From Patescibacteria group bacterium (GTDB lineage: Bacteria > Patescibacteriota > Microgenomatia > Levybacterales > UBA12049), in contig JBBTTO010000002.1 of the NCBI GenBank assembly GCA_038064195.1, positions 466,387-530,386 on the forward strand: DNA of 64,000 bases, read 5' to 3'. The notes under the pieces were generated by a model. It was given only the letters and a program-made list of their open reading frames with translations, was not told the DNA's origin and searched no databases. Positions 12,212 to 41,598 of the stretch are shown here, in pieces. Both the position numbers and the translations under genes were made by a program. The stretch's first letter is position 1, and each line of letters opens with the position of its first letter.

Positions 12212-12212
12212 T

Positions 12213-22786: not shown

Positions 22787-23555
22787 AACCATTTCACTCG
22801 TTGTCCCAACCTTTAAACAGGAAAGTTCAATTATAGAAAATATCAATTCTCTGGAAGCAGCCCTGAAAGAGCTCCCATATAGATATGAGATTGTTATTGT
22901 TGTGGATGGATTTTTGGATAATACGTATAATTTGGTAAAGAAGTTACGTCGACGTCACGTACGGGTTTTGGGTTATGAATCAAATAAAGGCAAAGGCTTT
23001 GCCGTTCGTTTTGGTATGCTTCAGGCAAAAGGAGACGTGATCGGTTTTATAGACGGCGGGATGGATATCGATCCGACCAGTATCTCAATGCTTGTCAACC
23101 ATTTTATCTGGTATGACGCGGATATTGTCATCGGGAGCAAGCTTCATCCCGTCTCACAGGTTAATTATCCGTTTATCAGAAAAGTTCTTTCCTGGGGATA
23201 TAGATCAATGATACGGATCATGTTTGGTTTGAAGGTAAGAGATACTCAGGTTGGGATGAAACTTTTCAGACGGGAAGTTGTCAGAGACGTTTTTCCGAGA
23301 CTTCTTGTCAAGCATTTTGCTTTTGATATTGAGATACTGGCTGTTGCTTACTCAAGAGGGTTCAAGCGAATTTTTGAGGCTCCTGTTAAAATTATCTTTA
23401 CCAATAAGAGCTCTATTGCAGGAAATAGTTTTAGTTCTGTATTAAGTAAATCGTTTTGGGAAGCTATCATGCATATGATGTGGGATACTTTTGCTGTTTT
23501 TTACCGTCTCAAAATCCTCAATTATTACAACAAACAGCAAGTACGTGCTCTATGA
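22773..23555 (+). CDS. GT2 glycosyltransferase
   Basis: ISLVVPTFKQESSI...IVIVVDGFLDNT and FIDGGMDIDP are GT-A motifs. Confidence 0.75.
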   Translation: MEKIKTISLVVPTFKQESSIIENINSLEAALKELPYRYEIVIVVDGFLDNTYNLVKKLRRRHVRVLGYESNKGKGFAVRFGMLQAKGDVIGFIDGGMDIDPTSISMLVNHFIWYDADIVIGSKLHPVSQVNYPFIRKVLSWGYRSMIRIMFGLKVRDTQVGMKLFRREVVRDVFPRLLVKHFAFDIEILAVAYSRGFKRIFEAPVKIIFTNKSSIAGNSFSSVLSKSFWEAIMHMMWDTFAVFYRLKILNYYNKQQVRAL

Positions 23556-24646
23556 ACATCCTAATCTTGAACTGGAGAGATCCGAAGAATCCCAAGAGTG
23601 GTGGAGCTGAGATAGTGACTCTCGAGCATGCCAGGGCATGGGTCAAAGCGGGGCATACGGTTGAGTGGTTTACGAGTAGATTCGCAGGAGCACCACAAAG
23701 AGAAATAATCGATGGGGTGACCATCATTCGGAAAGGAGGAAGTCTCACCAATTTTTTCTATGCGCCTTTTTTTTACCTTTCAAGAAAAAATAACTACGAT
23801 GTGGTCGTTGATGAGATACATGGCCTCCCATACTTTACTCCGCTGTACGTAAAAGAACCAATTATTGCATTTATTCATGAGGTAGCAGGGGAGATATGGG
23901 ATTATATGTATCCATTTCCCATAAATAAAATTGGTAAATTTATTGAGTCACGATATTTTCATTTATATAAAGTCATACCCTTTTGGACTGATGCACCTTC
24001 GACAATTGATGATTTATCTAAATATGGGATTGCAAGAGAGAATTGCGTAGCAATACCGTGTCCAATAAGCAATAATTCTCAACAATTATCGTTTGTGAAG
24101 GAAAAAAAACCAACATTTATTTTCGTCAGTCGTTTGGTAAAGATGAAAGGTGTAGAGGATGTCATTAAAGCTTTTAAAGAAATTGTTGTGATTGAGTCAA
24201 AAGCAAAACTTTGGATTGTTGGTGGAGGGGAAGAGAACTACGTTGTATTTCTAAAAAGTTTGGTTAAAAAATTGGGGCTAGAGAAGCAGGTTAGATTTTA
24301 TGGAAAAGTGACAGATGCCAAAAAAAAGGAGCTGATGAGGAAGGCGCATCTTCTCCTTCACGCATCAGTAAAAGAAGGGTGGGGGCTAGTTGTTGTTGAA
24401 GCGGCCAGTCAGATGACCCCGAGCGTTGTCTATAACGTCTCAGGATTGAAAGACTCAGTCAAAGATCAACAAACAGGCATACTTACTAAAGAAAATACAC
24501 CAGAGGCATTAGCAGAAGCGGCTATTAGCCTTATTAATGATAAAACAAATTATCAAAGACTACAAAAAAATGCGGTAGCATGGGCCACATCTCTGACGTG
24601 GGAGGATGCAACCCAAAAAAGTCTCAAACTACTTGAATCACTATGA
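23552..24646 (+). CDS. GT4 glycosyltransferase
   Basis: KEGWGLVVVEAASQMTP is the E-X7-E motif region. I placed the start at the ATG overlapping the upstream stop (ATGA); the ORF-track extension at 23456 is rejected. Confidence 0.8.
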   Translation: MNILILNWRDPKNPKSGGAEIVTLEHARAWVKAGHTVEWFTSRFAGAPQREIIDGVTIIRKGGSLTNFFYAPFFYLSRKNNYDVVVDEIHGLPYFTPLYVKEPIIAFIHEVAGEIWDYMYPFPINKIGKFIESRYFHLYKVIPFWTDAPSTIDDLSKYGIARENCVAIPCPISNNSQQLSFVKEKKPTFIFVSRLVKMKGVEDVIKAFKEIVVIESKAKLWIVGGGEENYVVFLKSLVKKLGLEKQVRFYGKVTDAKKKELMRKAHLLLHASVKEGWGLVVVEAASQMTPSVVYNVSGLKDSVKDQQTGILTKENTPEALAEAAISLINDKTNYQRLQKNAVAWATSLTWEDATQKSLKLLESL

Positions 24647-25479
24647 GGCAAGCAAAAGTATCAATATCAATTCCAACTTACAATAGCGCAATATTTCTCA
24701 AAAAATGTTTAGAAGCAATCGCGCAGCAGTCCTATGCAAATATTGAGGTAAACATTGTTGATGGGGAGTCACATGACGGGACCGTAGCTATTGCCAGAGA
24801 GCACGGTGTTAAAAATATCTTCACTTGTAAGGATGCATTACTTTCGGCTCGATTTGAGGGCGTTTGGCATTCCAAAGGGGATTTTGTTTTATTGTTGGAT
24901 AGTGATCAGATTCTTAACAAATCAGCCATTGCAAGAGCAGTCCAACTTTGCGAGAAAGAAGATTTTGATATGTTAGTTTTGGAAGAGGGCGTGTACAACC
25001 CTCAATCATTTATAGAGAGATTATTTCAGCAGGACAGAAAGCTGATCCATCAGGTAAAAGATTTTAGTCCATTTACTGGTGTAGTTCTTCCGAGGTTTTA
25101 TCGTAAGAGTTTATTGCTAAAAGCAATGAAGAATATTCCTGAAGAAACCAGAAAAGCTGTTGGTGGTCAGGATCATGCTATTATCTACTTTGAAGCATGG
25201 AATATCAGTCAAAAAGTCGGTTTTCTTCCTGATGCCGTTTTACACATAGAACCTAATTCACTTAAAACCATTTGGAAAAAATTTTATCGTTGGGGGGGAA
25301 CGAGTGTCGGGGCACGTTATGGTAAGTATGATGAGATGTTAAACAAAAAAGAACGCTTCCGAACGGGACTTTTTAAGAAAGGACTCATGAGAGAAAGTCT
25401 GGCATCAATTCTTTTGTTAATTCTCAAAGGGGTACCTTACAAATTAGGTTATTATCGAGCAAAATTATCAACAAAATAA
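24643..25479 (+). CDS. GT2 glycosyltransferase
   Basis: VSISIPTYNSAIFLKKCLEAIAQQSY...VNIVDGESHDGT and LLDSDQ motifs. Confidence 0.8.
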   Translation: MRQAKVSISIPTYNSAIFLKKCLEAIAQQSYANIEVNIVDGESHDGTVAIAREHGVKNIFTCKDALLSARFEGVWHSKGDFVLLLDSDQILNKSAIARAVQLCEKEDFDMLVLEEGVYNPQSFIERLFQQDRKLIHQVKDFSPFTGVVLPRFYRKSLLLKAMKNIPEETRKAVGGQDHAIIYFEAWNISQKVGFLPDAVLHIEPNSLKTIWKKFYRWGGTSVGARYGKYDEMLNKKERFRTGLFKKGLMRESLASILLLILKGVPYKLGYYRAKLSTK

Positions 25480-25480
25480 C

Positions 25481-26389
25481 ATGCCTGCAAAACCTGAAGT
25501 ATCTATCGTTATTCCAACAAGAAATCGACAAAACCAACTCAAGAGACTTCTTGCCTCGATTTCTCAGTCTATGTATAAAGATTATGAAATCATCATAGTC
25601 AATGACGGGACTGATACATTGTCATTACCAAACAGCAGGCACATACATATTATAGATAATAACTCAAATAAAGGCCTGGCTTTCTCGCGAACGAGAGGGG
25701 CCCAAGAAGCGAGAGGTGAGTATGTTCTTTTTATAGATGATGACAATGTTATTAATAGGGACATGCTAAGGATATTGGTTACTGCTCTTATGAATCACAG
25801 TACACTACTTGCCGTTGGCCCTGCGACTTATTATCTTTCAAATAAAAGTAAAATTTGGTTTCTTGGCTCAAAAATGAATTTGTTGACATCAATGCCGATC
25901 TTTAAGAGGCAATACCAGAAAGAAGAGCTTATTGCAGGTAATTTACTTATAACTGAGAACCTCCATAACTGCTTTATGGTGCGTAAAAAACAGGGAGACA
26001 AAGTAGGATGGTTCGACCCGTTCGTTTTTATGAATGGTACGGAGTTTGATCTTTTTCAAAGAATTAAGAGGCAATATCCCAGTATGATTTTGGCGGCTGT
26101 TACCGATGCTATGTGCTTCCATGATGTACCTGAGTTTCATAACGATCTTCTGAGAAGCATGGGTTTTGAGAACAAACGGCGTGTGTATTATTTCCAGCGA
26201 AATAGAGGGCTGCATGTTGGGAGGTATGGTCGGCTGCTTGATAAGCTGAGTTTGTTAGTTGTTTTTTATCCTCTGTTTTTGATTGTTTATTCGTTCCTGT
26301 TCTTGTACTATAGACGAGGTGATTTTTTTCTGGCTCATATAAGAGCGACATTCGACGGATATAGACTACTCTTACGTACATTTATTTAG
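25481..26389 (+). CDS. GT2 glycosyltransferase
   Basis: VSIVIPTRNRQNQLKRLLASI...IIIVNDGTD and FIDDDN motifs. Confidence 0.8.
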   Translation: MPAKPEVSIVIPTRNRQNQLKRLLASISQSMYKDYEIIIVNDGTDTLSLPNSRHIHIIDNNSNKGLAFSRTRGAQEARGEYVLFIDDDNVINRDMLRILVTALMNHSTLLAVGPATYYLSNKSKIWFLGSKMNLLTSMPIFKRQYQKEELIAGNLLITENLHNCFMVRKKQGDKVGWFDPFVFMNGTEFDLFQRIKRQYPSMILAAVTDAMCFHDVPEFHNDLLRSMGFENKRRVYYFQRNRGLHVGRYGRLLDKLSLLVVFYPLFLIVYSFLFLYYRRGDFFLAHIRATFDGYRLLLRTFI

Positions 26390-26391
26390 CT

Positions 26392-28275
26392 ATGTGTGGA
26401 ATACTTGGAGTATTAACAAAAGATAATTCGGGATCGGAGCTTTTTAGAGATGCTCTTCAGACTTTGTCGCATCGAGGGCCTGATTCTGAAGGTATTAAAG
26501 AGTTTCCTAATAAAAAAAGTAAATTAATTCTTGGTCAGAAAAGGCTGGCAATTATTGACCTGAATCCGAGCGCAAATCAGCCAATGGCTGATGTAACGGG
26601 GAGATACTGGATCACCTTCAATGGCGAAATTTACAATTATTTGGAGCTCAAGGATGCCCTTATCAAAAAAGGGCATAGATTCCGTACCAAGTCTGACACT
26701 GAGGTGGTTCTTGAAGGATATAAAGAGTATGGAATAAAAATAGTAGAAAAACTGCGGGGAATGTTTGCCTTCGGCTTATTTGACAAGAACCGTAATTCGC
26801 TTATTCTTGCGCGTGATCACTTTGGCAAGAAGCCAGTATATTACTACCATGATAAAGATACTCTCGTTTTCGGCTCGGAAGTTAAGGCTCTCGTTGCATT
26901 CTTGAAAAACAAACAGCCTCTATCTATAGACCAACAAGCAGTCATAAAATTTCTCATGTATGGGTATATCCCCTCTCCAAGAAGTATTTATAATGAAATT
27001 AAAAAACTTCCCGCAGCGACAGTACAGGAGATTGATCTCACTACCTTAAAAATAGTAAAGAATATCAAATTTTGGAATCCTCAGGAAATTACATTAAATG
27101 ATATTTCTTTCGATGAGGCCGTTGCTAAAACAGATCAACTTTTACAAGATGCAGTAAAAAAGAGATTGATAGCCGATGTCCCGGTGGGCAGCTTTTTATC
27201 AGGAGGAATAGACAGCAGCTTGGTTACGACAATTGCCGCCAAATTTCATCCGGGTATAGAGACATTCAGTGTAGTCTATAGTGATAAAAGATTCGATGAG
27301 TCAGAGTATGTGAAAATGGTAGGGAGTAGATTGCCAATAAAATATAACCTTTTTAACTTTAAAGATAGTTACGCACTTCCTTTATTGAAGGAAATTTTAT
27401 CACTCATGGATGAACCAATGGCTGACGCTTCATTACTCCCTACGACATTTGTTGCTAAGCAAACGAGAAAAAAAGTTACCGTGGCTCTCAGTGGAGATGG
27501 GGGAGATGAGCTATTCGGAGGTTATCCAAAATATAATGCCCAGAAATTATTTGATAAAAAATTTCTTTTTTTACTCATGAGAGCAGGTAGGGGAGCTGAC
27601 AAGATAATTGATCATCTGCCTATTGATCCTGTAAAAAAAAATATCTATAGAAAACTTCTAGAGGGAGTCGATTTAAGTACCTATAGCCGGCATTTCGTAT
27701 GGGGAAGTGGAAGCTTCACTTTCAGTGAGTTAAAGAAATTACTATCGGTAAATACAGTGATTTCAGAAGAGGAGATCTTCTCTGAAAGCAAAACTTTTTT
27801 TGACAGTTTTAAACAAGTAGATTCCGGGAATAGAATTCTTTTTCTGGATGCCATGATTCAGCTTCCGGACTGGTATCTCGTTAAAGCAGATCGAGGATCT
27901 ATGTCTCAATCTCTTGAGGTCCGTAGTCCATTTCTTGATGCAGATTTAGCGGAGTTCGTGATGGCTCTTCCATCAAGGTATAAGTATTCGATCGCAAAAA
28001 ATAAAATTCTTCTTAAAAAACTTGCGGGAAAATACCTGCCGCTTGAGGTTATTGATCGTAAAAAAATGGGGTTTGGTCTCCCTTTGAATAAATGGCTAAC
28101 TAATAACTTCAGGGGTGAGGTTGAGGAATCGCTTGCATCACTTCCTGAAGACATGTTTAATAGAGAATATATTCTTTCCCTCTGGGAAGAACTGCGATCA
28201 GGCAAGGCAGATAATGGTACGAAAATCTGGAGATTATTTATATTAGGATCATTTTTACAAAATCATGTCAACTAA
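26392..28275 (+). CDS. asnB: Asparagine synthetase B-like glutamine-dependent amidotransferase (WbpS-like sugar amidotransferase candidate)
   Basis: MCGILGV with the catalytic Cys2 of Ntn amidotransferases. SGGIDSS PP-loop ATP pyrophosphatase motif. 627 aa. Confidence 0.8.
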   Translation: MCGILGVLTKDNSGSELFRDALQTLSHRGPDSEGIKEFPNKKSKLILGQKRLAIIDLNPSANQPMADVTGRYWITFNGEIYNYLELKDALIKKGHRFRTKSDTEVVLEGYKEYGIKIVEKLRGMFAFGLFDKNRNSLILARDHFGKKPVYYYHDKDTLVFGSEVKALVAFLKNKQPLSIDQQAVIKFLMYGYIPSPRSIYNEIKKLPAATVQEIDLTTLKIVKNIKFWNPQEITLNDISFDEAVAKTDQLLQDAVKKRLIADVPVGSFLSGGIDSSLVTTIAAKFHPGIETFSVVYSDKRFDESEYVKMVGSRLPIKYNLFNFKDSYALPLLKEILSLMDEPMADASLLPTTFVAKQTRKKVTVALSGDGGDELFGGYPKYNAQKLFDKKFLFLLMRAGRGADKIIDHLPIDPVKKNIYRKLLEGVDLSTYSRHFVWGSGSFTFSELKKLLSVNTVISEEEIFSESKTFFDSFKQVDSGNRILFLDAMIQLPDWYLVKADRGSMSQSLEVRSPFLDADLAEFVMALPSRYKYSIAKNKILLKKLAGKYLPLEVIDRKKMGFGLPLNKWLTNNFRGEVEESLASLPEDMFNREYILSLWEELRSGKADNGTKIWRLFILGSFLQNHVN

Positions 28276-29059
28276 TTACAAAGAGCTAAACGAAGGAAGA
28301 TATACAACTCTTCATGATTACACAAATCTTTCTTTACTGGAGAGAATCTATTTTAATTTTTCGCCTGGGACAATTGTTCTACGGCGCTTATTTCGAATTT
28401 TAGATGATTACCTTCGAAAATCTAGTATAAAAAAAACTAAAATTCTTGATGTTGGTTGTGGAGGGGGGATGAAAGAACTTGCTCTTCGCGGAGAGGTTAC
28501 CGGCATTGATATTAGTGATTCCAGTCTGAGAAATGCGAAGAAAATTTATAAAAAAGCAATAGCGTATGATCTTTCGAAACGCTATCCTTTTCCTGATGAG
28601 TCTTTTGATATTGTATTCTGTTCAGAAGTGTATGGACATATTGATGTAAATGATAAAGATCATTTTATTGATGAAATAAAGAGAGTGCTAAAAAAAGATG
28701 GTTTTTTTATCTTCTCCATAGAGACAGATGGCAATAACTGGCTGACTCGCTACCTCAGGAGAAAAAAATTATACCAAAAGTTATGGATAGACTTCGACGG
28801 CCATATTGGCTTGGAAACTCCGCAACGAACGATTGGCAGATTTAAGAAAAGGTTCAAGAAGGTAGAGTATCTGGTAAATAATACCTCTGTATTTACAGTA
28901 GATGAATTGGCGTCCATTTTCCCAAGTATTGCTCGTATAACTAAAAATACATCGATCAGACGAATTATCAATTTATCTCTTGCTCCATTCTACGAATTGT
29001 CGATCAGAGTGACAAATCTGTCCTCAGCAAACAATATCTGCGTCTATGGCAAAAAATAA
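28265..29059 (+). CDS. Class I SAM-dependent methyltransferase
   Basis: ILDVGCGGGM (motif I) and a downstream acidic residue. 264 aa. Confidence 0.7.
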   Translation: MSTNYKELNEGRYTTLHDYTNLSLLERIYFNFSPGTIVLRRLFRILDDYLRKSSIKKTKILDVGCGGGMKELALRGEVTGIDISDSSLRNAKKIYKKAIAYDLSKRYPFPDESFDIVFCSEVYGHIDVNDKDHFIDEIKRVLKKDGFFIFSIETDGNNWLTRYLRRKKLYQKLWIDFDGHIGLETPQRTIGRFKKRFKKVEYLVNNTSVFTVDELASIFPSIARITKNTSIRRIINLSLAPFYELSIRVTNLSSANNICVYGKK

Positions 29060-30086
29060 CCCGCTTCTCTCTATTTGTATTCCCACCTTCAATCGCGCTG
29101 CGTATCTATCTGAGACGATTCAGTCAATTCTGTCGCAGACATATACACATTTTGAACTTATCATTATTAATGACGGATGTACTGACAACACAGAAGATGT
29201 TGTCAAAGGCTATAAAGATAAGAGAATACAATATCTCAAGAATAAAAAAAACTTGGGTTACATTAAGACTATGAATAAGGGAACTATGCTTGCGAAGGCC
29301 GAGTGGGTCATGCATGTCTCAGATGACGATAAGATGCGTCCGACTATGCTTGAGGAAATGGTAGATGCTCTTTGTGAATATAACAATCAGGAGATCGGAT
29401 TCGTCGTGCCTCAATCTGCAAATATTGATCACAAAGGAGAGCTGATTAATGAACCCCCAAAACAACTGGTTAATAAGAAGAGTATTTTATTAAAGCCGAA
29501 AGAATTTATATGTAACTTCACACTTTACGGAAGGAAAATTCGTGATACATATGTTTTTAACACCTCATTTCCTTCAACTCTTTTTAATAAAAAAATTTTG
29601 ATAGAGCTTGGTATGTCCAGTGAGGATGTCCCTGTCTCCCATGACGTTCTGATCGAATCTGAGATTTGTCTTCTCTATCCTGTTTTAGTCGTTGATAAAC
29701 CGCTATTTGAATATAGAGTGCATGAGAACTGGGGCTCCAGTCTAAATCGTAAAGGAACATATGTAACTGAATATGAGCATTTTCTTGAAAAGCTCTTCTC
29801 ATTTATAGACAAAAATAACATCAAGTTTGATTATAATTTTCGTAAATACGCATATCAGGCTCTTACTAACTACATATTTGCTCTTAACGGTGGCCTACTC
29901 AGGCTTTCAGGTAAATATCAGGGATCTTATCAGCAAAGATTGAAGAAAATAGAAGGATATATTTCTTTTGGAGTTTCACATGACAAATTATTACTGGTAT
30001 CGTTGAGGTTTTATATCGTAGTTATGGCATCGCTTTTACCCCAGTCCATAATCATCAGTCTGGGACGATTTTCCAGAAAAACATAG
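29046..30086 (+). CDS. GT2 glycosyltransferase
   Basis: LSICIPTFNRAAYLSETIQSILSQTY...LIIINDGCTDNT and HVSDDD motifs. Confidence 0.8.
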   Translation: MAKNNPLLSICIPTFNRAAYLSETIQSILSQTYTHFELIIINDGCTDNTEDVVKGYKDKRIQYLKNKKNLGYIKTMNKGTMLAKAEWVMHVSDDDKMRPTMLEEMVDALCEYNNQEIGFVVPQSANIDHKGELINEPPKQLVNKKSILLKPKEFICNFTLYGRKIRDTYVFNTSFPSTLFNKKILIELGMSSEDVPVSHDVLIESEICLLYPVLVVDKPLFEYRVHENWGSSLNRKGTYVTEYEHFLEKLFSFIDKNNIKFDYNFRKYAYQALTNYIFALNGGLLRLSGKYQGSYQQRLKKIEGYISFGVSHDKLLLVSLRFYIVVMASLLPQSIIISLGRFSRKT

Positions 30087-30100
30087 AATGACAATAGTAT

Positions 30101-30129
30101 TGACAACACAGAGAAAACAATGAATAATA
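30101..30129 (+). promoter_or_regulatory. Candidate sigma70-type promoter TTGACA-N17-AATAAT upstream of 30152
   Basis: Perfect −35 hexamer with 17-nt spacing to an AATAAT −10. It lies in one of the few 65-nt gaps. Confidence 0.3.
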
Positions 30130-30151
30130 GTCTAGTTAATTAGCTATTTAC

Positions 30152-31327
30152 ATGATTAGACTCATAAAATCCACCTATCACAACGAAGAGGAGACTACTA
30201 AAAAACTCATATCTTTTCTGGGACATACCAAGCAGCTAAGCTTTGGTCCTGAGTGCCATAAATTTGAGGATGAATTTGCAAAATGGCAGAAGCGTAAGCA
30301 CTGCGTTTTTCTCAATAGTGGAAGCTCTGCAAACCTTGCTATGATTCAGGCCCTTATCAACTTTGGCAAATTAAAGCCGGGTGATATGGTCGGATTCTCA
30401 GCACTTACCTGGTCTACAAATGTAATGCCGATTATCGAACTTGGTTTGAAAGCGGTACCGATTGATGTTGAGCTGGATACGTTGAATGTCTCAAGCAGAC
30501 AGTTATTGGCAACCCTCAAAAAATATCCGATCAAAATGCTTTTCCTGACAAACCTCTTGGGATTTTGCGATGATATAGATGAGATCAAGAAAATCTGTGA
30601 TAAGAAAAAAATTATTCTTCTTGAAGACAACTGTGAGTCATTAGGAACTGTCTATAAAGGGAAATTGTTGGGGAATTACGGACTCGCGAGCTCAGTCTCA
30701 TTTTATGTAGGGCATCATATGTCAACTGTTGAGGGTGGGGCAGTCTGTACTGACAGTGAGAAGTTGGCAACAATGCTGAGGATTGTCAGAGCGCATGGTT
30801 GGGACAGGAATTTATCAGAACAAAAACAAACTAAAATCAGAAATAAATATAAGATTAATTCTACTTTTTATTCACGTTACACATTTTATGATCTAGGGTA
30901 TAATCTTCGTCCGACTGAGATTAACGCTCATATTGGGAGGATTCAAATTCCGTTTTTGAAAGAAATTACCAAACAAAGAAATAAAAATTTCTTTGAAATG
31001 GCGGTACCAATTTATGCCCAAAAGGATAGATTTTATCCTATAAAATATGATCATATTGATTTTCTCTCAAATTTTGCAATACCGGTTCTCTGTAAGTCAC
31101 AAAAAATTCGGGATGAGTTAGTTGAAAAGTGCAATAATAAAATCGAAATCAGGCCAATTGTGGGCGGGGATATGACGAGACAGCCCTTCTTTAGTAAGTA
31201 TATGAAGGAGTTCTCTTATGAAAATCCGAATGCTAGACTTGTCCATGAGCAAGGTCTCTATTTCGGTAATAATCCTGAATTGACAGATAAAGAAAAAAAA
31301 TTAATTGTTCAGGTTTTTACTAAATAA
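30152..31327 (+). CDS. DegT/DnrJ/EryC1-family PLP enzyme with ColD/E1-type Lys-to-His substitution (sugar 3-dehydratase-like)
   Basis: Family motif SVSFYVGHHMSTVEGG. The position of the Schiff-base Lys in SFxxxKxxxxGEGG is His188, as in GDP-4-keto-6-deoxymannose 3-dehydratase ColD (His188) and CDP-hexulose 3-dehydrase E1. 391 aa, the size of ColD. Confidence 0.65.
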   Translation: MIRLIKSTYHNEEETTKKLISFLGHTKQLSFGPECHKFEDEFAKWQKRKHCVFLNSGSSANLAMIQALINFGKLKPGDMVGFSALTWSTNVMPIIELGLKAVPIDVELDTLNVSSRQLLATLKKYPIKMLFLTNLLGFCDDIDEIKKICDKKKIILLEDNCESLGTVYKGKLLGNYGLASSVSFYVGHHMSTVEGGAVCTDSEKLATMLRIVRAHGWDRNLSEQKQTKIRNKYKINSTFYSRYTFYDLGYNLRPTEINAHIGRIQIPFLKEITKQRNKNFFEMAVPIYAQKDRFYPIKYDHIDFLSNFAIPVLCKSQKIRDELVEKCNNKIEIRPIVGGDMTRQPFFSKYMKEFSYENPNARLVHEQGLYFGNNPELTDKEKKLIVQVFTK

Positions 31328-31339
31328 TCTCCCCCAACA

Positions 31340-32287
31340 TTGATGAAACTCAACAAGAAAAAGGATTGCCCTACTTGTGGGAATTCAAAGGCCATTTATC
31401 TGGATAAATTCTGGAGATGTCCAAGGTGTCTTTATCAATTTGCAGATCCTCAGGATGAATCCTTTACAAAGGCCTATTATCAGAAAGATATCGGTCTGTT
31501 GGTTCAGAATGTGCTGGAGGAAAAAGATAAAAAAGTTCATTTACGAAAGTACGCAACCTTAGCAATGAGAGATATTGCGCTGCTTAATAAAGGACTCCGA
31601 ATTTGTGACATTGGTTGCGGAACCGGTGTTTTTTTGCTGAAGTTGAAAGAGAATGGACATAAAGTATATGGGTATGACATAAATAAAGCACAAACCGAAT
31701 TCGCAAGAAAAATAAATAAATTACACCATATAAGAGATGCTCAAAGTCTTAAAGGATACTGCAGAAAAATGAAAATTAAAAAAGGATTCTTTGATGTCAT
31801 TACCTGTTTTGAGGTTATTGAGCATGTTCTTGACCTGAATGAATTTGTTGAAGAGATTTATACTTATCTCAAGCCGGGTGGAGTTCTCATAGTATCAACG
31901 CCCAATAATGAGCGTATACAGATGCATGAGAAGTGGGATTACCCCCCGATCCATGTTTCCCGGTTTAAAAAAAAGAATATGGAATTACTCCTTATGAAGC
32001 ATAGCCTGGTCATTCAGTCCTTTAGGACATTTAATGAACTTGGCTATTATTCGGGTAATCTTATAGCAAAAATGAAATTTTCACATCAGGCGCTCGAGCA
32101 TATGGTTAAAGCTTCAACTGATCCCTCATCAGCTCGAAAATCCTCAAGGAATGCTAAGTTCTTTATGCTTCTTTCGCAAGCAAAAAGAACAGCTTGCTTG
32201 TTTATTGATTTACCGCTTTATCTTTTCCTTAGTACACAAAGAGAAAAAGGTCACACAATGTTTGTTGTTGCTAAAAAGACAATATGA
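31340..32287 (+). CDS. Class I SAM-dependent methyltransferase with N-terminal CxxC..CxxC zinc ribbon
   Basis: CPTCGN...CPRC at the N-terminus. ICDIGCGTGV motif I. Confidence 0.7.
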   Translation: MMKLNKKKDCPTCGNSKAIYLDKFWRCPRCLYQFADPQDESFTKAYYQKDIGLLVQNVLEEKDKKVHLRKYATLAMRDIALLNKGLRICDIGCGTGVFLLKLKENGHKVYGYDINKAQTEFARKINKLHHIRDAQSLKGYCRKMKIKKGFFDVITCFEVIEHVLDLNEFVEEIYTYLKPGGVLIVSTPNNERIQMHEKWDYPPIHVSRFKKKNMELLLMKHSLVIQSFRTFNELGYYSGNLIAKMKFSHQALEHMVKASTDPSSARKSSRNAKFFMLLSQAKRTACLFIDLPLYLFLSTQREKGHTMFVVAKKTI

Positions 32288-33525
32288 GAATAGGGATGAT
32301 CTTCCATTCGTTGAATGTTCCCGGGGGAAGTGCCTCTGTTTTTCTCTCATTAGCTTTAGCATTGCAGGAGCAAGGTCATATAGTTCATGTCTTTTGTTAT
32401 TATTTTGATCCTGAGTACTGTTTCCCTGAACTTAACAAAAATCTGAAAATCCACTACATCAAAAAGATTGACTCAAAGTCCCACAGGATCAATACTAACA
32501 GTATTTGGATCCGTTTATTATTAGGATACGAATATTATTTCAACGCGAGGAAAGTTTATCGACTTCTAAAGCAACACAAATTCGATATTCTATACGCCGC
32601 GGAAGCAAGTGCCTATATTCCGGCTTTAATCTACAAAAAAAAGAAATCTGCGCGAGTCTATTGGAGTGTGTTTGATCCTATTTCATTAGTTGATAATAAA
32701 CGTCCGGGAATGATAACACATAAGTATCGTTGGTTTGCCACGCTTCTTAAGGTGCATAATCTTTTTGACGCGCGTAATATTAGAAAAATTGATAGGGTAA
32801 TAGTTCCGACAAAGAAAATGAAACAACAACTTGATTCGTTCTATGGAATTAAAGCGGCTATCCTGCCGACAGCGGGAGTTCGAGTTCAAGATAGTAAAAA
32901 GAAGTATACTTCTTTAATAGAGAGCAGATTACGGGATCGATTCAATTTTAGAAAAAAGGATGAAGTTATTCTCTTTTCTAATGGACATCTTTTACCTCAC
33001 AGACGATACGAAGATGTATTATATGCTTTACAGCCGTTAATAGATCAAGGCTATCGCTTTAAATATATCATCTCTGGGAGTAATAAATTTGACCCTAATT
33101 ACTTTGTCTACCTCCAGGCTCTGATAGAGAAGTTGCATTTAAATGACTATACAATTCTTGATACGGATTTTAAGTCAAATGATGAAATTCTGGGTTACTA
33201 TCAATATTGTGATCTTTTTCTTTTTGTTAGCGTAGAGCAAACATGGGGTTTAGCTCCCTTTGAAGCAATGCTCTGTAAAAAGCCGGTAATCATCTCAAAA
33301 GGAGTAGGCTGTTCAGAAGTCTTAACAGACAGAAAAGATGTGCTCATCGTTGATGAACGTTCTCCAAAGCAGATTACAAAGAGTATTGGACTTCTTATAA
33401 AGAATAAATCATTATACAAAACAATATCGGAGAACGGGTATAAACGAACGCTTGCCGATTTCACGTATCAGAACATCGCCGGAAAGCTCGTGGATATGAT
33501 GAAGGAATCAGCTGGTCAGGTCTGA
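32284..33525 (+). CDS. GT4 glycosyltransferase
   Basis: GT-B architecture. TWGLAPFEAMLCKKPVI matches the EX7E region. ATGA overlap with the upstream gene. Confidence 0.8.
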   Translation: MRIGMIFHSLNVPGGSASVFLSLALALQEQGHIVHVFCYYFDPEYCFPELNKNLKIHYIKKIDSKSHRINTNSIWIRLLLGYEYYFNARKVYRLLKQHKFDILYAAEASAYIPALIYKKKKSARVYWSVFDPISLVDNKRPGMITHKYRWFATLLKVHNLFDARNIRKIDRVIVPTKKMKQQLDSFYGIKAAILPTAGVRVQDSKKKYTSLIESRLRDRFNFRKKDEVILFSNGHLLPHRRYEDVLYALQPLIDQGYRFKYIISGSNKFDPNYFVYLQALIEKLHLNDYTILDTDFKSNDEILGYYQYCDLFLFVSVEQTWGLAPFEAMLCKKPVIISKGVGCSEVLTDRKDVLIVDERSPKQITKSIGLLIKNKSLYKTISENGYKRTLADFTYQNIAGKLVDMMKESAGQV

Positions 33526-34709
33526 GAGAATACGGAGAGCATCTCTTCTGCATATTTATCCCATGATATAGTCTTTTTTACAAAATCCTGGCCGGCCGTG
33601 GCAATTTTTTTCCTAAGAGGATAGCTGTTAAAAAGAATTTCAATTTTTGTAGCAATCTGTGTCGGAGATTCCGGATCGACAAGCATAGCAGTTTGGTTAT
33701 CCTTTAATACTTCATGCGCCCCTGCCCCTCTACTGACAATAGCAACACAGCCAGACAACATCGCCTCAAAGACTGCAAGCCCCCATGTTTGTGGATTATT
33801 GGGGAAGACAAAAATATCAGATGTCTTATATTGTTTTTTTAATTCCTCTTCTGTGACTCTGCCTAAAAATTTTACATAAGATTCGAGATTGTATTTTTTG
33901 ACGAGTGACTCAACTAACAGATAGTACTGAAGGTCTGTCCTGGTTTCTCCGATAATTGATAGTGTAATATTTCCCAGCTTCTTTTTATTTACTAAGATAT
34001 TCATCGCTTTCACGAGATCTTCAAATCTTCGATGGGGGAAAAATATTCCTGTTGCCAGAACTGAAAGATTCTTCTTGGGTTTATAAATTCTTTTTGAGTA
34101 AAAGTCCTCCTGCTTTAATCCACTCCTTACAACAACTGCATCAGAGTGGAGGTATCTTTTAATAATCGATTTATTGATATTATCAAGAACAATAATTTTA
34201 TTTATTTTATTTCGGTACTTTATCCTGTATTCAAGATGAGACCACCGACGATACCATGTCTCGGGGAGACTTTCCCCTTTTACAAAGAGGTCATTCATCA
34301 TCCAGAAGTTCTTGGAAGGATCAAAATAGGCTGCGAGTTTGTACACTTCGGTTTCATGATAATTAAAAAAGTCATAGTGATTTCTTGCATCTACTTGCTT
34401 AATCAAATCACGAAGCTGTAGGAGATTGTGTCTTTTGTTAATAAAATGAGGAATAATATTGAATGTCTTTTGCAGCAGATTATATTTGGCTAAGTGGTGA
34501 GTCTGTTTTTTGCTGGACTCGTTTACTGAGTATACCTTGAGCTGTTTGAGAAGGTGAGGAAAACACTTCTCACGATCTAGATCTATGCAAAATATATCAA
34601 CGTGGTGTCCTTTGCGTTTGAGCGACAAAGCCAGTTCAAGAATTTGTCTGGCGCCGCCGCCGCTAATCTGTAGACCCCAGATAATCAAGGCTACTTTTTT
34701 CTTCTTCAT
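33516..34709 (-). CDS. GT4 glycosyltransferase, the only large minus-strand gene within the island
   Basis: TWGLAVFEAMLSGCVAIV EX7E region. The N-terminal glycine-rich ISGGGARQI is typical of GT4. I chose the start at MKKKKVALI (34709); an upstream in-frame ATG at 34805 is also possible. The 3' end overlaps that of 32284..33525 by 10 nt. Confidence 0.7.
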   Translation of the reverse strand: MKKKKVALIIWGLQISGGGARQILELALSLKRKGHHVDIFCIDLDREKCFPHLLKQLKVYSVNESSKKQTHHLAKYNLLQKTFNIIPHFINKRHNLLQLRDLIKQVDARNHYDFFNYHETEVYKLAAYFDPSKNFWMMNDLFVKGESLPETWYRRWSHLEYRIKYRNKINKIIVLDNINKSIIKRYLHSDAVVVRSGLKQEDFYSKRIYKPKKNLSVLATGIFFPHRRFEDLVKAMNILVNKKKLGNITLSIIGETRTDLQYYLLVESLVKKYNLESYVKFLGRVTEEELKKQYKTSDIFVFPNNPQTWGLAVFEAMLSGCVAIVSRGAGAHEVLKDNQTAMLVDPESPTQIATKIEILFNSYPLRKKIATAGQDFVKKTISWDKYAEEMLSVFSQT

Positions 34710-34799
34710 CAATACTGTATAGTATATGATATAGCCTGCTTTAATAATAGAGAGAAGTTGTAGCATTCTCTTCTTATCATATTTATGGTATAGGTATGT

Positions 34800-37067
34800 A
34801 TGCATTTGAAATATTTCTTATTAATTCTTCCCTTTGCAGTAATTGCATTTTTTAATAGAAGTCTTCTTTTTAGTACTTCTAACCCATCTTGGGGAGATAT
34901 GGTAGCCATCCCACCCCAACCCCTCCCCTTTGGAGAGTCACTGTTCCATGTCTGGAGGGATGTTTTTACAGGAGGATTTGGCCCGACGAATATTCCTCAC
35001 CTTATTTTGTCTCAGTTCTCACCGATTATTCCTCATGCAATTTTACAAGGCGTATATTTATTCTTTTTATTTTTTCTCCTCTTTATAAGTTTTATTGATA
35101 TCCTCAAACAACTATCGCTTAAGAAATCTTATATGGATTTTATGGTACTTCTTGAGGCAAATTTTTTGGTGCTTATTATCTATTTTTCTAATACATTTTT
35201 AGTTAACTTTATTCAGGGTAATCCGGATGTCTATTATGGCTATTTACTCGGCATTCCGTCGATTTTATATCTTTATTTATCTATACATAAGAATGATCTT
35301 GTGTCCGGACTGAAGATGGTGCTTCTTATAACGATAGCTACTTGGTTTGGCTCTTTCTCTATTTTTTATCTTGCAGCTCTACTTCTTCCCTTTTTTATTT
35401 TATTCGTCCTTCTCTATTGGAAAAATCTAAGCTTTAAATTTTTATTACTTCTTCTTGTGTTGCTTTTAGGTAGTAATGCTTCCTTATTATTTGCGACGAT
35501 CAAGCCAATTCTCGATGCTGTCAGTTTTATTAGTGCAGCTACCGGGAAGGAAATTATCGACACTTCTTTTTCCCTTTATAAAGGGATGAATCCTTTACAA
35601 CTTCTTTATTTCGCGGGTAATTTTGGTGATGTCACATGGCTTCTTTTTAACATCCCCGGAGGATACCTTTTTATGACATCCCCACTTTATCCTCTTAGCT
35701 CAGTACAAATTGTAATTGTCCTTTTCCTTCTCATTAAAGGATTGTCAATAACAACCGAGTTTACTCAAAGACGATTAATCCTGGGGATCCTTGCAATTTA
35801 TTTGATGTTTTTCTCACTACTTTTGGTATGGGATACGTCGATTTTTGCATCTATAGCCAAGCATATTCCCATGATCGCTCTTTATAGAAATCCAAAGAAG
35901 ATTGTCTTATCTCTTTATGTCGCCTACATTGTTACAGTTTTATTTATTAAACCCCTCGTCAAACCTCATTTTTTTAGATATTCGTTACTGGGAATTCTGT
36001 TATTGACGGCAATCCCTACTATCAGCTTTATAAATGACGGATATAACGGATTGAAGAACGCGCATATTGTCTCGTCTGCTTTTTATCATAAAGATGAAGC
36101 AAAAAGCACACAAAATTTCAATCGATTTATTAATTTTCCGGATAGATTCATTGAGCTCAAAAAATACTTCAAGACGCAAGATAGCGCAGCTAACGGCGAT
36201 GGGAATTATCGTGTAGTAATACTGCCAGATAATAGTCAGACTTTGTACCAAGGTCAGCTTTTTTATCTGCTTAATCCTTTTTATATCAACATAAATGCAG
36301 CAGTTTTTGGACAGTTGAAAGATACAGTGACTATCATGAGTGTCTTGTATACCAGTCTTATTGACGGCAATTCATCAGTATCAGCTCAATTACTGCAAAT
36401 CGCTAATGTTAAGTATGTGATTGTCGATAGACAGAGTCGATATGATCTGTATACAAGTGACAAAAAACCACAGATAAGAAGCTACTACGGTACATTTACA
36501 TCAGGCCAGCCTGAAGAATTTAAAAAAATACTAGATAAGCAGAAATTTTTAAAATTGATAAATACGAATAGAGATTTCTACGTTTATAAAAATATTAATT
36601 ATACGAACACACTCGTCTATGTGCCCCAACATGTCTGTGAGATGAAGAAGTTTGGGGTATCCAATAGCGATTGTGACTTTTATGAGTCTTCAGCGACACC
36701 TCTTCCTCAAACAAGTAAAAGTTTTGTCTCTCGTCTGGTTAGAACTAGTCCGACAGATTACAGTTTTGTTTTGCATGCTGAGGCCGCCGGCAAGACGGTA
36801 GTCTTCTTTAATCAGACGTTTGATAGATTCTGGTCGCTTAGTGGGGACAAGGATAGTATTGTCAAGGTCTCTGAACACAGGATAGGTAATTTCTATGGTA
36901 ATACCTGGACTGTAGACATGCCTGAGGGTGGAGATTATTCTTTTAAAATCTCCTACAGACTCGAGCCACCCTATGTTCTGTTAGTATTTGTTTCGATACT
37001 CAGTATACTTGGGACAATGAGTCTAATGATATTCTTATCATTGAAAAGAAAAAGACAGAACACCTAA
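34800..37067 (+). CDS. Large polytopic membrane protein with C-terminal extracytoplasmic domain and terminal TM anchor (uncharacterised; polymerase or GT-C candidate)
   Basis: 755 aa. About 12 N-terminal helices, a roughly 330-aa hydrophilic domain, and a final helix LLVFVSILSILGTMSLMIFL. No recognisable soluble enzyme motifs. Confidence 0.45.
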   Translation: MHLKYFLLILPFAVIAFFNRSLLFSTSNPSWGDMVAIPPQPLPFGESLFHVWRDVFTGGFGPTNIPHLILSQFSPIIPHAILQGVYLFFLFFLLFISFIDILKQLSLKKSYMDFMVLLEANFLVLIIYFSNTFLVNFIQGNPDVYYGYLLGIPSILYLYLSIHKNDLVSGLKMVLLITIATWFGSFSIFYLAALLLPFFILFVLLYWKNLSFKFLLLLLVLLLGSNASLLFATIKPILDAVSFISAATGKEIIDTSFSLYKGMNPLQLLYFAGNFGDVTWLLFNIPGGYLFMTSPLYPLSSVQIVIVLFLLIKGLSITTEFTQRRLILGILAIYLMFFSLLLVWDTSIFASIAKHIPMIALYRNPKKIVLSLYVAYIVTVLFIKPLVKPHFFRYSLLGILLLTAIPTISFINDGYNGLKNAHIVSSAFYHKDEAKSTQNFNRFINFPDRFIELKKYFKTQDSAANGDGNYRVVILPDNSQTLYQGQLFYLLNPFYININAAVFGQLKDTVTIMSVLYTSLIDGNSSVSAQLLQIANVKYVIVDRQSRYDLYTSDKKPQIRSYYGTFTSGQPEEFKKILDKQKFLKLINTNRDFYVYKNINYTNTLVYVPQHVCEMKKFGVSNSDCDFYESSATPLPQTSKSFVSRLVRTSPTDYSFVLHAEAAGKTVVFFNQTFDRFWSLSGDKDSIVKVSEHRIGNFYGNTWTVDMPEGGDYSFKISYRLEPPYVLLVFVSILSILGTMSLMIFLSLKRKRQNT

Positions 37068-37070
37068 TTT

Positions 37071-38039
37071 ATGGCTAAGTCAAACATACTCGTAACTGGA
37101 TCTGCTGGATTTATTGGCTTTCATATAGCAAAGCGGTTGTTAGAACGTGGTGAAAACGTTATAGGGATAGATAACCTGAATGATTATTATGCTGTTTCTT
37201 TAAAAAAAGACAGAAATAGACTACTTACAACACACAAGAGTTACTCGTTTTATGAGGAAGACATTACCAGCAAAGAGAGACTTGAAGGGATCTTTAAGTC
37301 ACATAGAATTGACAAAATATGTCACTTAGCCGCTCAAGCAGGGGTCAGATATTCTCTGCAAAATCCCTCTCTTTATGTTGATACCAATATTTTGGGTTTT
37401 GTAAATATTCTCGAGTCTGCTCGTAAGTTCGGCGTACGTGATGTTGTATATGCATCGAGTTCTTCGGTCTATGGGGATAATCCAATGCCCCAAAATGGTT
37501 TTTCAGAAAAAGATGCTGTTAATCAGCAGATATCAGTTTACGGAATGACGAAGAGAGCCAATGAGCTTACCGCGTATACGTATCATCATCTGTATAAAAT
37601 GAATCTGACAGCTCTTAGGTTTTTTACAGCCTACGGTCCCTGGGGAAGGCCTGATATGGCCTATTTCAGTTTTACTCAGGCAATAGTGGAAGGAAAGCCT
37701 ATTAAGGTATTTAACAACGGAAAAATGAAAAGAGATTTTACCTATATTGACGACGTTGTTGGTGGCGTTCTTAGAGCATTGGAGAAGCCTTATCCGTATG
37801 AAATATTTAATATCGGTAATTCTCAAACAGTTGATTTAAATCATTTTATCGGCAGTATTGAGAGAGAATTGGGTAAAAAAGCAATTATTGAATATAACGA
37901 TTTACAGCCGGGAGATGTTATAGAAACATTTGCTGATATTACTCACGCTAAAGAAGTTCTCGATTTTCACCCCCAAACGTCAATAGATGAAGGCATAAGG
38001 AAGTTTGTTGAATGGTATAAATCATATTATGAAAAATAG
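37071..38039 (+). CDS. UDP-glucuronate 4-epimerase-like NAD-dependent epimerase/dehydratase (SDR)
   Basis: VTGSAGFIGFH Rossmann motif, HLAAQAGVRYS, YASSSSVYG, YGMTKRANE (YxxxK) and FFTAYGPWGRPDMA. Collinear with the Cap1J/WbnF-type UDP-GlcA 4-epimerase signature. Confidence 0.75.
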   Translation: MAKSNILVTGSAGFIGFHIAKRLLERGENVIGIDNLNDYYAVSLKKDRNRLLTTHKSYSFYEEDITSKERLEGIFKSHRIDKICHLAAQAGVRYSLQNPSLYVDTNILGFVNILESARKFGVRDVVYASSSSVYGDNPMPQNGFSEKDAVNQQISVYGMTKRANELTAYTYHHLYKMNLTALRFFTAYGPWGRPDMAYFSFTQAIVEGKPIKVFNNGKMKRDFTYIDDVVGGVLRALEKPYPYEIFNIGNSQTVDLNHFIGSIERELGKKAIIEYNDLQPGDVIETFADITHAKEVLDFHPQTSIDEGIRKFVEWYKSYYEK

Positions 38040-39165
38040 TTTTAATGAGTTAATGGCGAAAGCATGGTTTCGCTGGTTCTTTATTCCACTTCTTTTATTT
38101 ATTTCATCATTCTTTTTTCTGATGATTTTTGCTTATAGTTCAAAATCGTTTATTCTACTACAAAATGAGGATAAGGACGTATTTACCACTTTGTTCCCGG
38201 GTGAAATACTGGCTGGAGAAAAAGTGTCTGGAGAATTTACCGCCATGAGCGATTTTATCGGAATTGTATCTGTGAGGTTTAATACCTATGCGAGGATTAA
38301 TAATGATATTCTAACTTTCAGGATAAAAGAAAAAGGTGATAAAAAATGGTACTATGAGAATATCTATAAAGTTGATCAATTCCAGCCTAATCAACTTTTT
38401 CCTTTCGGTTTTCCTCCCATACAAAACTCAAAAAATAAAGTATTTCAAATTGAGATTGAATCAGCAAAAGGCAAATATCATGATGCTGTAGCAATAAATA
38501 CGAAAAATCCGGTCATAGTTATGAGCTACCAGCTGCCTGTCAGTAGATTTTTGTCGAAAGATGGAGCAATCGCATTATTAACCTACAAACAGAAAATAAT
38601 AACGTTCATATTTGATGCGATAGCGTCAAGAGTTCAGAATTTTATTATACTTTTTCTTCCACCTATTCTTTATTTGACTTTGATGGCATGGAGAACTAGC
38701 AAGTTTTTGGAAACGTTTGCAAATATCGTAGGCTCTGTCCTTCTGGGATATATATTTTTGATTGGCCGGCTTCTTCCGGATAATCAGCAGAACAGTGTTG
38801 TTTTTATCATAGTTCTGCTTTTTTTAATAGCAATTATTGTTCGTAAATATAAAATGAGTTATGTTATTTATTTTGTTGTCTCAATATTTTTTATACTTCT
38901 TATGTCAGGAATTCTGATTACTTTGCATAGACCGGATATCGCGGACAGGTCTGCGTTGTTTGCGTATCTTTTTCTTCTGATCGGTACGTTCCTTGGAATA
39001 ATTGAGCGTAAAAAGAAAGTGAAGAAAGGAAGCTTAGCGCTATTTTTTAACGATTTATGGATAGTTAAATTATTCTTTTTTGTATCAAACTACGTATTCT
39101 TGAGATCTCTAATGTATAGAAGAATTTATACTAAATTTCAATATGAAATTAACAAAATTAGTTAA
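38029..39165 (+). CDS. Hypothetical membrane protein
   Basis: N-terminal helix, a roughly 180-aa hydrophilic region, then several helices. Start placed at the ATG; the ORF-track TTG at 38005 lies inside the upstream gene. Confidence 0.4.
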   Translation: MKNSFNELMAKAWFRWFFIPLLLFISSFFFLMIFAYSSKSFILLQNEDKDVFTTLFPGEILAGEKVSGEFTAMSDFIGIVSVRFNTYARINNDILTFRIKEKGDKKWYYENIYKVDQFQPNQLFPFGFPPIQNSKNKVFQIEIESAKGKYHDAVAINTKNPVIVMSYQLPVSRFLSKDGAIALLTYKQKIITFIFDAIASRVQNFIILFLPPILYLTLMAWRTSKFLETFANIVGSVLLGYIFLIGRLLPDNQQNSVVFIIVLLFLIAIIVRKYKMSYVIYFVVSIFFILLMSGILITLHRPDIADRSALFAYLFLLIGTFLGIIERKKKVKKGSLALFFNDLWIVKLFFFVSNYVFLRSLMYRRIYTKFQYEINKIS

Positions 39166-40549: not shown

Positions 40550-40582
40550 ATTCAACCGAATTTGGTTAAATAGCCTCAAACG

Positions 40583-40591
40583 TGATACAAT
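40583..40591 (+). promoter_or_regulatory. Extended −10 TGATACAAT, 6 nt upstream of the 40598 ATG (leaderless arrangement)
   Basis: TGnTACAAT in a 48-nt gap. The predicted TSS coincides with the A of the ATG. Confidence 0.35.
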
Positions 40592-40597
40592 TACCGG

Positions 40598-41533: not shown

Positions 41534-41598
41534 TTAGCTCATGTTGACATGCTCCTGCCGCTCAGGCATGCTAATAGAAGGTTTGTCTGTAAAAATAT

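Follow-up and report, generated by a model that had tools for sequence, protein, structure and literature searches.

A predicted ColD-type sugar 3-dehydratase lacking the E1 iron–sulfur motif in a glycan-assembly island of a Patescibacteria group bacterium

3,6-Dideoxyhexoses are rare and strongly antigenic sugars known chiefly from Gram-negative O-antigens. Two described types of enzymes, sharing one fold, are closest to the gene considered here. ColD, or WbdK (Escherichia coli O55 and Yersinia pseudotuberculosis; PDB entries 2gms, 3b8x, 2r0t and 3gr9), is a GDP-4-keto-6-deoxy-D-mannose 3-dehydratase, and E1 (DdhC, AscC or RfbH; 3bcx and 3bb8) is a CDP-6-deoxy-L-threo-D-glycero-4-hexulose 3-dehydrase, catalysing C3 deoxygenation of a 4-keto-6-deoxy sugar nucleotide (PMC8987622). 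According to this review, ColD has no iron–sulfur (Fe-S) cluster and its pyridoxamine 5'-phosphate (PMP) is regenerated with glutamate, while E1 and SpnQ carry a cluster and require reductases. ColD-like enzymes also serve other GDP-sugars in capsule synthesis: the C3-dehydratases of Campylobacter jejuni HS:5 and HS:11 are pyridoxal 5'-phosphate (PLP)-dependent, ColD-type, glutamate-recycled and Fe-S-free, with GDP-6-deoxy-4-keto-D-lyxo-heptose as the substrate (PMC10440746). Herein, we analyse a 64,000-nucleotide stretch of DNA (hereafter, the window) from a Patescibacteria group bacterium of the order Levybacterales, and in particular the gene located at positions 30152–31327 on its forward strand. 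Judging from sequence, this gene very probably encodes a ColD-type, Fe-S-free and PMP-dependent nucleotide-sugar 3-dehydratase. The best overall explanation, namely a functional enzyme of this type with GDP-4-keto-6-deoxy-D-mannose as its likeliest substrate, seems to us a probable one.

Fold and active site

The open reading frame (ORF) at 30152–31327 is intact, having 391 codons, an ATG start and a stop codon. Since homologues align from residue 1 onward and M1 is invariant in an alignment with 28 close homologues, the ATG is the correct start. The product matched Pfam family PF01041 (DegT_DnrJ_EryC1) at 5.5e-59 over residues 13–387. When compared with the sequences of solved structures, it found its best relative in E. 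coli ColD (2gms; 9.5e-57, 195.7 bits, 37% identity), followed by E1 (3bcx; 4e-40, 141 bits) and by a putative nucleoside diphosphate (NDP)-4-keto-6-deoxyglucose 3-dehydratase (9wvy; 6e-34). Sugar aminotransferases containing the catalytic Lys appeared from 1.9e-25 or weaker, with no more than 93 bits. An AlphaFold2 model built with the 28 homologues (predicted local distance difference test, pLDDT, 78; predicted template modelling score, pTM, 0.82) gave ten top Foldseek matches in the PDB that were all ColD chains, at template modelling (TM) scores of 0.77–0.79; E1 came next and then GDP-perosamine synthase. The latter (PerA; 3bn1 and 3dr4) shares the fold with the query, as do PseC, WbpE and ArnB (TM 0.73–0.78). 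However, all four retain the Schiff-base Lys and are merely 19–24% identical to the query, with E values of 1e-21 to 1e-16 against 1e-57 for ColD.

The likeness to ColD extends to size (388 residues in ColD and 391 in the query) and to a series of shared motifs: GSSANL/GSTANL, WST, LEDNCES, HH..T.EGG, RAHGW(D/T)RNL and E-x-R-P. R219, E332 and R334 of the query are likewise aligned with Arg, Glu and Arg in ColD. The region of interest is formed by residues 181–196 (codons at 30692–30739, forward strand), which read SVSFYVGHHMSTVEGG and correspond to the active-site strand and loop, where aminotransferases have their Schiff-base Lys; they were aligned to FSSFYSHHIATMEGG in ColD and to VSFYPAHHITMGEGG in E1. 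The Lys of the S-F-x-x-x-K motif, characteristic of DegT/DnrJ/EryC1/StrS aminotransferases, is absent here, and its place is taken by His188 (codon 30713–30715), the predicted general acid/base, with a second His at position 189. In the HMMER alignment, G187-H188-H189 of the query fall on S-H-H of 2gms. Two mutant chains of ColD, 3b8x (H188N, reading SNH) and 2r0t (H188K, reading SKH), differ from the wild type at the first His of the pair, which fixes the catalytic column as H188 of the query. In native ColD numbering this residue is likewise 188, as the PDB chain is longer by two residues at its N-terminus. The same residue is aligned to H220 of E1, which also has a His-His pair at the Lys position.

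His188 is not a chance replacement, because it is invariant in all 28 homologues of 70–91% identity and in every full-length member of a much broader sample. For the latter, 1.84 billion representatives of 50%-identity clusters were searched, which yielded 653 clusters at E ≤1e-30; the best 150 were examined, 114 of them being full-length, and all 114 have His at column 188. D159, S183 and E194 are essentially invariant in these representatives too, and S183, H188, H189, E194, G195 and G196 do not vary among the 28 close homologues. D159, which corresponds to the conserved cofactor-binding Asp of fold-type I enzymes, is part of the LEDNCES motif (D159-N160-C161, codons at 30626–30634, forward strand), where D159 is invariant and C161 is found in 111 of the 114 representatives.

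The earlier note on this DNA, made from the sequence alone, had proposed His188 in place of the Schiff-base Lys and, on these grounds, a dehydratase of the ColD/E1 class resembling ColD. The first is confirmed by the alignments and mutant chains described above. The second is supported, ColD being the best match in sequence and fold, the E1 Fe-S motif being absent and His being present in all 114 full-length representatives. A Lys brought to the active site by another alignment register can be discounted, as there is none between K171 and K204, and true aminotransferases are not the closer homologues. It might still be supposed that the protein has lost the Lys and yet acts as a sugar aminotransferase or in other PLP chemistry, for instance as a PMP-dependent 4-aminotransferase resembling the side reaction of SpnQ. 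The DegT fold would suit such an enzyme, SpnQ does transaminate when no reductase is supplied (PMC8987622), and Lys-type DegT aminotransferase genes are found near some orthologues. Nevertheless, we consider this very unlikely: His is universal among the nearest full-length representatives, Lys-type enzymes are far more distant (1e-25 or weaker), and wild-type ColD and E1 showed no transamination under the conditions in which SpnQ did (PMC8987622). Moreover, a small residue ahead of the catalytic His (G187 in the query, Ser in ColD, Ala in E1) fits the dehydratase pattern.

Cofactor type

ColD and E1 differ in their cofactor logic, so the cysteines deserve separate attention. Counting along the 3bcx alignment, we located the ligands of the E1 [2Fe-2S] cluster at C193, C251, C253 and C261, that is, with a C-X57-C-X1-C-X7-C spacing. 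Out of these, the query retains only the counterpart of C193, namely C161, which is Cys in ColD also; C251, C253 and C261 are replaced by R219, L221 and a gap. The motif is thus missing from the query, as it is from ColD. The earlier note was right about the absence of these cysteines, three out of four being gone, but it had placed them at the C-terminus, while they actually lie in the middle of the protein. In addition, the query has the ColD residue, and not that of E1, at W87, S88, L221, R253 and E332. Taken together with the published properties of the two enzymes (PMC8987622), the missing cysteines and the likeness to ColD argue that the query follows the cofactor logic of ColD.

An E1/RfbH-type enzyme, that is, a CDP-4-keto-6-deoxy-D-glucose 3-dehydrase with a [2Fe-2S] cluster and an E3 reductase, is what public annotation would suggest: homologues are labelled "CDP-6-deoxy-D-xylo-4-hexulose-3-dehydrase" or "E1" at JGI and NCBI, and RfbH (NF011936) is the best NCBIfam model for the query. 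However, RfbH is the sole NCBIfam model available for this enzyme class, and the score of 210 bits is half of the curated cut-off (423), which is not passed. E1 itself has 437 residues and is 31% identical to the query, which scores 196 bits to ColD against 141 bits to E1. No E3-like or ferredoxin-reductase gene was seen in the Pfam lists of the window, and no E3-like reductase, RfbF or RfbG was present in the window or near orthologues. With three cluster cysteines lost as well, we hold an E1-type enzyme to be highly improbable.

We also considered whether the eight cysteines of the protein, all invariant in the 28 close homologues, might form an alternative Fe-S or metal site. In distant relatives, these positions are occupied by Val, Ala, Pro, Leu or Phe, save for C161 and, mostly, C149. 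Such hydrophobic or small replacements make another cluster site unlikely, and cysteines other than C161 and, in part, C149 are probably just buried positions.

That the enzyme would deoxygenate an NDP-4-keto-6-deoxyhexose at C3 we infer from homology and from the gene context of orthologous loci. By homology to ColD, the keto group at C4 of the substrate would be joined to PMP as a ketimine. His188 would then withdraw the proton at C4' of PMP, and the hydroxyl at C3 would leave. Hydrolysis of the resulting enamine would give NDP-4-keto-3,6-dideoxyhexose and ammonia, and transamination with L-glutamate would turn PLP into PMP again, an E3-type reductase not being required; the lack of E3-like and ferredoxin-reductase genes in the Pfam lists of the window would be consistent with this. 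Reduction of the product, and perhaps its epimerisation, would fall to an Fcl/ColC-like short-chain dehydrogenase/reductase (SDR) encoded elsewhere in the genome, and the sugar so formed would be incorporated into the envelope glycan specified by the island around the gene, which spans at least 74 kb.

Conservation and distribution

The closest genome (locus L007, Levyibacteriota) is collinear with positions 25420–37966 of the window at 77% nucleotide identity. Within this syntenic cluster, the dehydratase is the best conserved protein, being 92.8% identical to its orthologue, compared with 41–85% for 16 neighbouring genes. Its ratio of nonsynonymous to synonymous substitution rates (dN/dS) is 0.025 against 0.075 and 0.11 for two neighbours; these values are rough, as dS is near saturation. 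Relatives were found in at least 595 GTDB species genomes, and the best 80 of them, 61–93% identical to the query, are mostly labelled Patescibacteria, including Levy-, Woese-, Roizman-, Gottesman- and Pacebacteria, Saccharibacteria and Parcubacteria. Such figures clearly indicate a functional gene under strong purifying selection. The opposite view would be that of a decaying or orphaned remnant whose pathway partners are locally missing, and indeed neither Gmd nor ColC was found in the 84 kb around the gene. Given an intact ORF, the strongest conservation in its cluster and so many relatives, we regard this view as scarcely credible.

The enzyme class itself is textbook knowledge, and annotation pipelines already recognise the family as 3-dehydratases, which limits the novelty of our assignment. 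Yet they give the wrong subtype: source databases name the homologues after the CDP-dependent dehydrase or E1, or else as generic DegT aminotransferases. An Fe-S-free ColD type, probably GDP-linked, would be a better description. What we consider new here is that an Fe-S-free lineage of its own can be recognised, that it is widespread and closely conserved in genomes mostly labelled Patescibacteria, and that its genes are often paired, as colD is, with those for Gmd and an Fcl-like SDR. To our knowledge, the envelope glycans of Patescibacteria have not been analysed for 3,6-dideoxyhexoses, and the literature that we searched contained no relevant link between colitose and Patescibacteria, the two being co-mentioned only in unrelated rumen metabolome work. 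That a gene of this kind, strongly conserved and under purifying selection, is found in the very large glycan island of an ultrasmall bacterium from groundwater suggests that such a sugar matters for the envelope of these episymbionts, cells that need to recognise a host cell and become attached to it.

The gene is also present, at 62–72% identity, in many records that bear the title "uncultured Gammaproteobacteria bacterium" (L014, L017, L022, L027 and others). In several of them (L017, L046, L067), the order SDR–dehydratase–Fcl-like gene is the same as in Patescibacteria-labelled loci. These titles may be placeholder labels.

Substrate and gene surroundings

In order to find possible pathway partners, we compared 84 loci, namely the window and 83 fetched loci of up to ±10 kb each, in which ORFs were called and clustered. 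The strongest associate of the dehydratase gene was an Fcl/ColC-like SDR of about 326 residues, which occurs in 31 loci and immediately follows the dehydratase gene in 19 of them. Among NCBIfam families it comes closest to GDP-L-fucose synthase (214–269 bits, below the cut-off of 500), and among solved structures it is nearest to GDP-L-fucose synthases and GDP-mannose 3,5-epimerases (7ll6, 6e-48). ColC belongs to the same family of GDP-L-fucose synthase/epimerase-reductase SDRs. The partner retains S-x-C, Y-xxx-K and SHV motifs, which we take to be the catalytic residues of GMER-type epimerase/reductases. Levyibacteriota orthologues with 70–73% identity to the query (L015, L026, L077), as well as that of L004 (73%), are accompanied by this SDR. 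Gmd-like genes occur within 10 kb in about nine loci, and the two that were scored pass TIGR01472 (519 and 441 bits; cut-off 415). In one locus (L085), the order Gmd–dehydratase–Fcl-like SDR reproduces a colitose-type cassette; colD itself adjoins genes for Gmd and an Fcl/ColC-like SDR, so that many orthologous loci share its placement.

Other neighbours point in a similar direction. An SDR resembling CDP-tyvelose 2-epimerase lies one to four genes downstream in seven loci (9rl0, 8.8e-37; other SDRs 1e-21 or weaker), and the characterised tyvelose 2-epimerase 1orr acts on a 3,6-dideoxyhexose nucleotide. Five of the six ORFs with a nucleotidyltransferase motif near the dehydratase are ManC-like rather than RfbF-like, and motifs of RmlB or RfbG were found in none of the 84 loci. 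Within the window, a gene for a ManC-like mannose-1-phosphate guanylyltransferase of 361 residues is located at 52620–53705 on the forward strand, in agreement with the earlier note, which had reported ManC in the island. The protein has the Pfam domains NTP_transferase and ManC_GMP_beta-helix, is devoid of a phosphomannose isomerase domain and scores 227 bits to TIGR01479 over the N-terminal 349 profile positions, the cut-off for the full length being 373. GDP-mannose for the dehydratase may come from this enzyme.

Because Fcl/ColC-like SDRs and Gmd are found near orthologues, where motifs of dTDP- or CDP-sugar dehydratases are missing, a GDP-linked 3,6-dideoxyhexose appears likely. We are therefore inclined, though with modest confidence, to see GDP-4-keto-6-deoxy-D-mannose as the likeliest substrate and a 3,6-dideoxyhexose as the product, on the basis of the family-wide gene association and the ManC-like gene. 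Colitose, or one of its isomers, is conceivable as the final sugar.

Several observations weigh against this reading. The query is only 37% identical to ColD (31% to E1, while ColD and E1 share 34.5%), whereas characterised ColD-type enzymes are 62–67% identical to each other (PMC10440746). With such values to ColD, the C. jejuni enzymes are true ColD orthologues, and the query, being far more distant, does not group with them by this measure. In a midpoint-rooted neighbour-joining tree, the query clade gathers 65 representatives before joining the branch of ColD and E1, which places the query in a separate, uncharacterised lineage of His-type dehydratases. Confidence in the structural model is low in the loops 186–193, 214–221 and 236–252, active-site loops included. 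Furthermore, a six-frame scan of the window for Gmd motifs (GQDG.., NHE.P.R) gave nothing, and no Gmd, other 4,6-dehydratase or Fcl/ColC-like SDR was present in the window plus 10 kb on each side (84 kb). The two SDRs of the window are GalE and a UDP-glucuronate-4-epimerase-like protein. Finally, none of the above partners lies within 10 kb in 44 of the 84 loci, the window and L007 among them. The query thus differs from ColD both in its surroundings, there being no gmd or colC nearby, and in its hosts, which are mostly Patescibacteria rather than Gram-negative pathogens. If present at all, the gmd and reductase genes of this genome must be located elsewhere on the contig. The earlier note had itself recognised neither Gmd nor ColC in the window, and this holds over the 84 kb; its further suggestion that GDP-mannose is turned into a 3,6-dideoxyhexose gains plausibility from the orthologous loci, but finds no 4,6-dehydratase or reductase to lean on here.

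The same points might be read as signs of another substrate. In such a case, ColD-type C3 deoxygenation would act on a 4-keto-6-deoxyhexose linked to dTDP, UDP or CDP, on a 4-keto-heptose, or on a keto-sugar that a non-canonical SDR provides, and the product would not be a colitose-type sugar. Apart from the missing partners, both here and in half of the orthologous loci, and the separate lineage of the query, a 311-residue SDR (cluster c6) is worth mentioning in this respect. It is encoded upstream in 13 loci, in the slot held by Gmd elsewhere, immediately before the dehydratase gene in L075, L057, L046 and L017, among others. The protein reads A-S-T-S-H-V-Y-G where 4,6-dehydratases have S-T-D-E-V-Y-G (T-S-H for T-D-E) and scores alike to dTDP-glucose 4,6-dehydratase (2hun) and to the GDP-6-deoxy-D-lyxo-4-hexulose reductase Rmd (2pk3); it could be either a non-canonical dehydratase or a second reductase. 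The C. jejuni homologues of ColD, which accept a GDP-heptose, set a precedent (PMC10440746). On the other hand, the recognisable genes for activation, dehydration and reduction near this family are mostly of GDP-pathway types (Gmd, Fcl-like, ManC-like), the motifs of RmlB and RfbG were found in none of the 84 loci, and the Pfam lists of the window are free of genes for a heptose pathway. We consequently rate a different nucleotide sugar as rather unlikely and keep to the GDP-linked 3,6-dideoxyhexose.

In the 44 loci without SDR partners, no conserved partner of any other kind emerged, the neighbours being variable GT2 and GT4 glycosyltransferase genes only. It is tempting to speculate, though the idea is a doubtful one, that a distinct lineage of Fe-S-free 3-dehydratases marks a 3-deoxy or 3,6-dideoxy sugar that is a hallmark of the envelope in these ultrasmall episymbionts, and that genomes with no local partners, about half of them and the present one included, use another substrate or precursor route. 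If so, partner-less loci would represent a new pathway variant and not colitose synthesis.

A different kind of association was seen in the complete 1.6-Mb genome GCA_965230895.1 (L004). There, positions 11176–15135 of the locus contain genes for the dehydratase, the Fcl-like SDR, a member of the UDP-GlcNAc-2-epimerase family, a GNAT acetyltransferase and a Lys-type DegT aminotransferase. Since the last kinds of genes are used in amino-sugar synthesis, a second modified sugar may come from the same locus.

As for the surroundings of the gene in the window, the dehydratase is part of a long same-strand run of glycan genes. Positions 1–56400, together with 10 kb upstream of the window (L087), where further GT2, GT-C and flippase genes are located, make up a glycan-assembly island of at least 74 kb, nearly all on one strand, which amounts to about 7% of the contig of approximately 1.08 Mb. 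This contig (1,075,823 bp; ENA ERZ1292617) stems from a 0.1-µm fraction of Hainich groundwater, and the window corresponds roughly to positions 1,009,270–1,073,269 of that record. On the other side, the 10 kb downstream of the window hold an mraZ-mur (dcw/mur) cluster. The island contains more than ten GT-C-type membrane proteins (PMT_2, PMT, YfhO, PTPS_related), many GT2 and GT4 enzymes, two Wzx-like flippases, a 1027-residue protein with a weak Wzy_C match (44705–47788), a DUF2079 protein, ManC and a Bac_transf initiating transferase (53708–54373). G+C content is 0.34–0.39 at positions 22000–42000, the dehydratase gene included, against 0.41–0.43 in the flanks; such a low central value is typical of variable or exchanged glycan loci.

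Upstream of the dehydratase are GalE (19440–20414, above its cut-off), glycosyltransferases of the GT4 and GT2 families, a Wzx-like flippase, an AsnB-like glutamine amidotransferase (26392–28275; TIGR01536, 454 bits), a methyltransferase and a further GT2. Directly downstream, after a gap of 12 nucleotides, there is a methyltransferase gene (31340–32287), whose product is 77% identical in L007 and has an N-terminal CPTCG...CPRC motif of the CxxC...CxxC kind, resembling a zinc ribbon, before a class I S-adenosylmethionine methyltransferase domain; it could methylate the sugar or the glycan. The order then continues with two GT4 genes, a 755-residue protein of no known family, an SDR (37071–38039), a 386-residue protein of no known family and a DUF2079 protein. 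This SDR resembles UDP-glucuronate 4-epimerases (5u4q, 3.8e-105; also 6zl6 from Bacillus cereus) and, together with the AsnB-like amidotransferase of the same cluster, hints that galacturonic acid, either as such or amidated, is a component of the glycan. As a candidate for the missing Gmd or ColC it was rejected, given these matches and the S-S-S found in place of the T-D-E of dehydratases; the other SDR of the window was rejected likewise, as it passes the GalE cut-off.

Three further features of the cluster recur or overlap in ways worth recording. An opposite-strand ORF of 94 codons (30346–30630) is nested entirely within the dehydratase gene. Downstream of the dehydratase and GT4 genes, a set consisting of two proteins of no known family (about 710–755 and 350–386 residues) and a protein of 468–514 residues (DUF2079 in the window) keeps its order; in the window it occupies 34800–37067, 38005–39165 and 39143–40549, and the same arrangement is found in other Levy- and Woesebacteria loci (L005, L006). 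Lastly, a 177-residue ORF with only the N-terminal Glyco_transf_4 half (41599–42132) stands directly before a full GT4 of 377 residues (42129–43262). Similar 178-residue "half-GT4" ORFs (cluster c15/c30_14) are conserved in 9–10 related loci, and the half and the full GT4 may constitute a split or two-piece glycosyltransferase.

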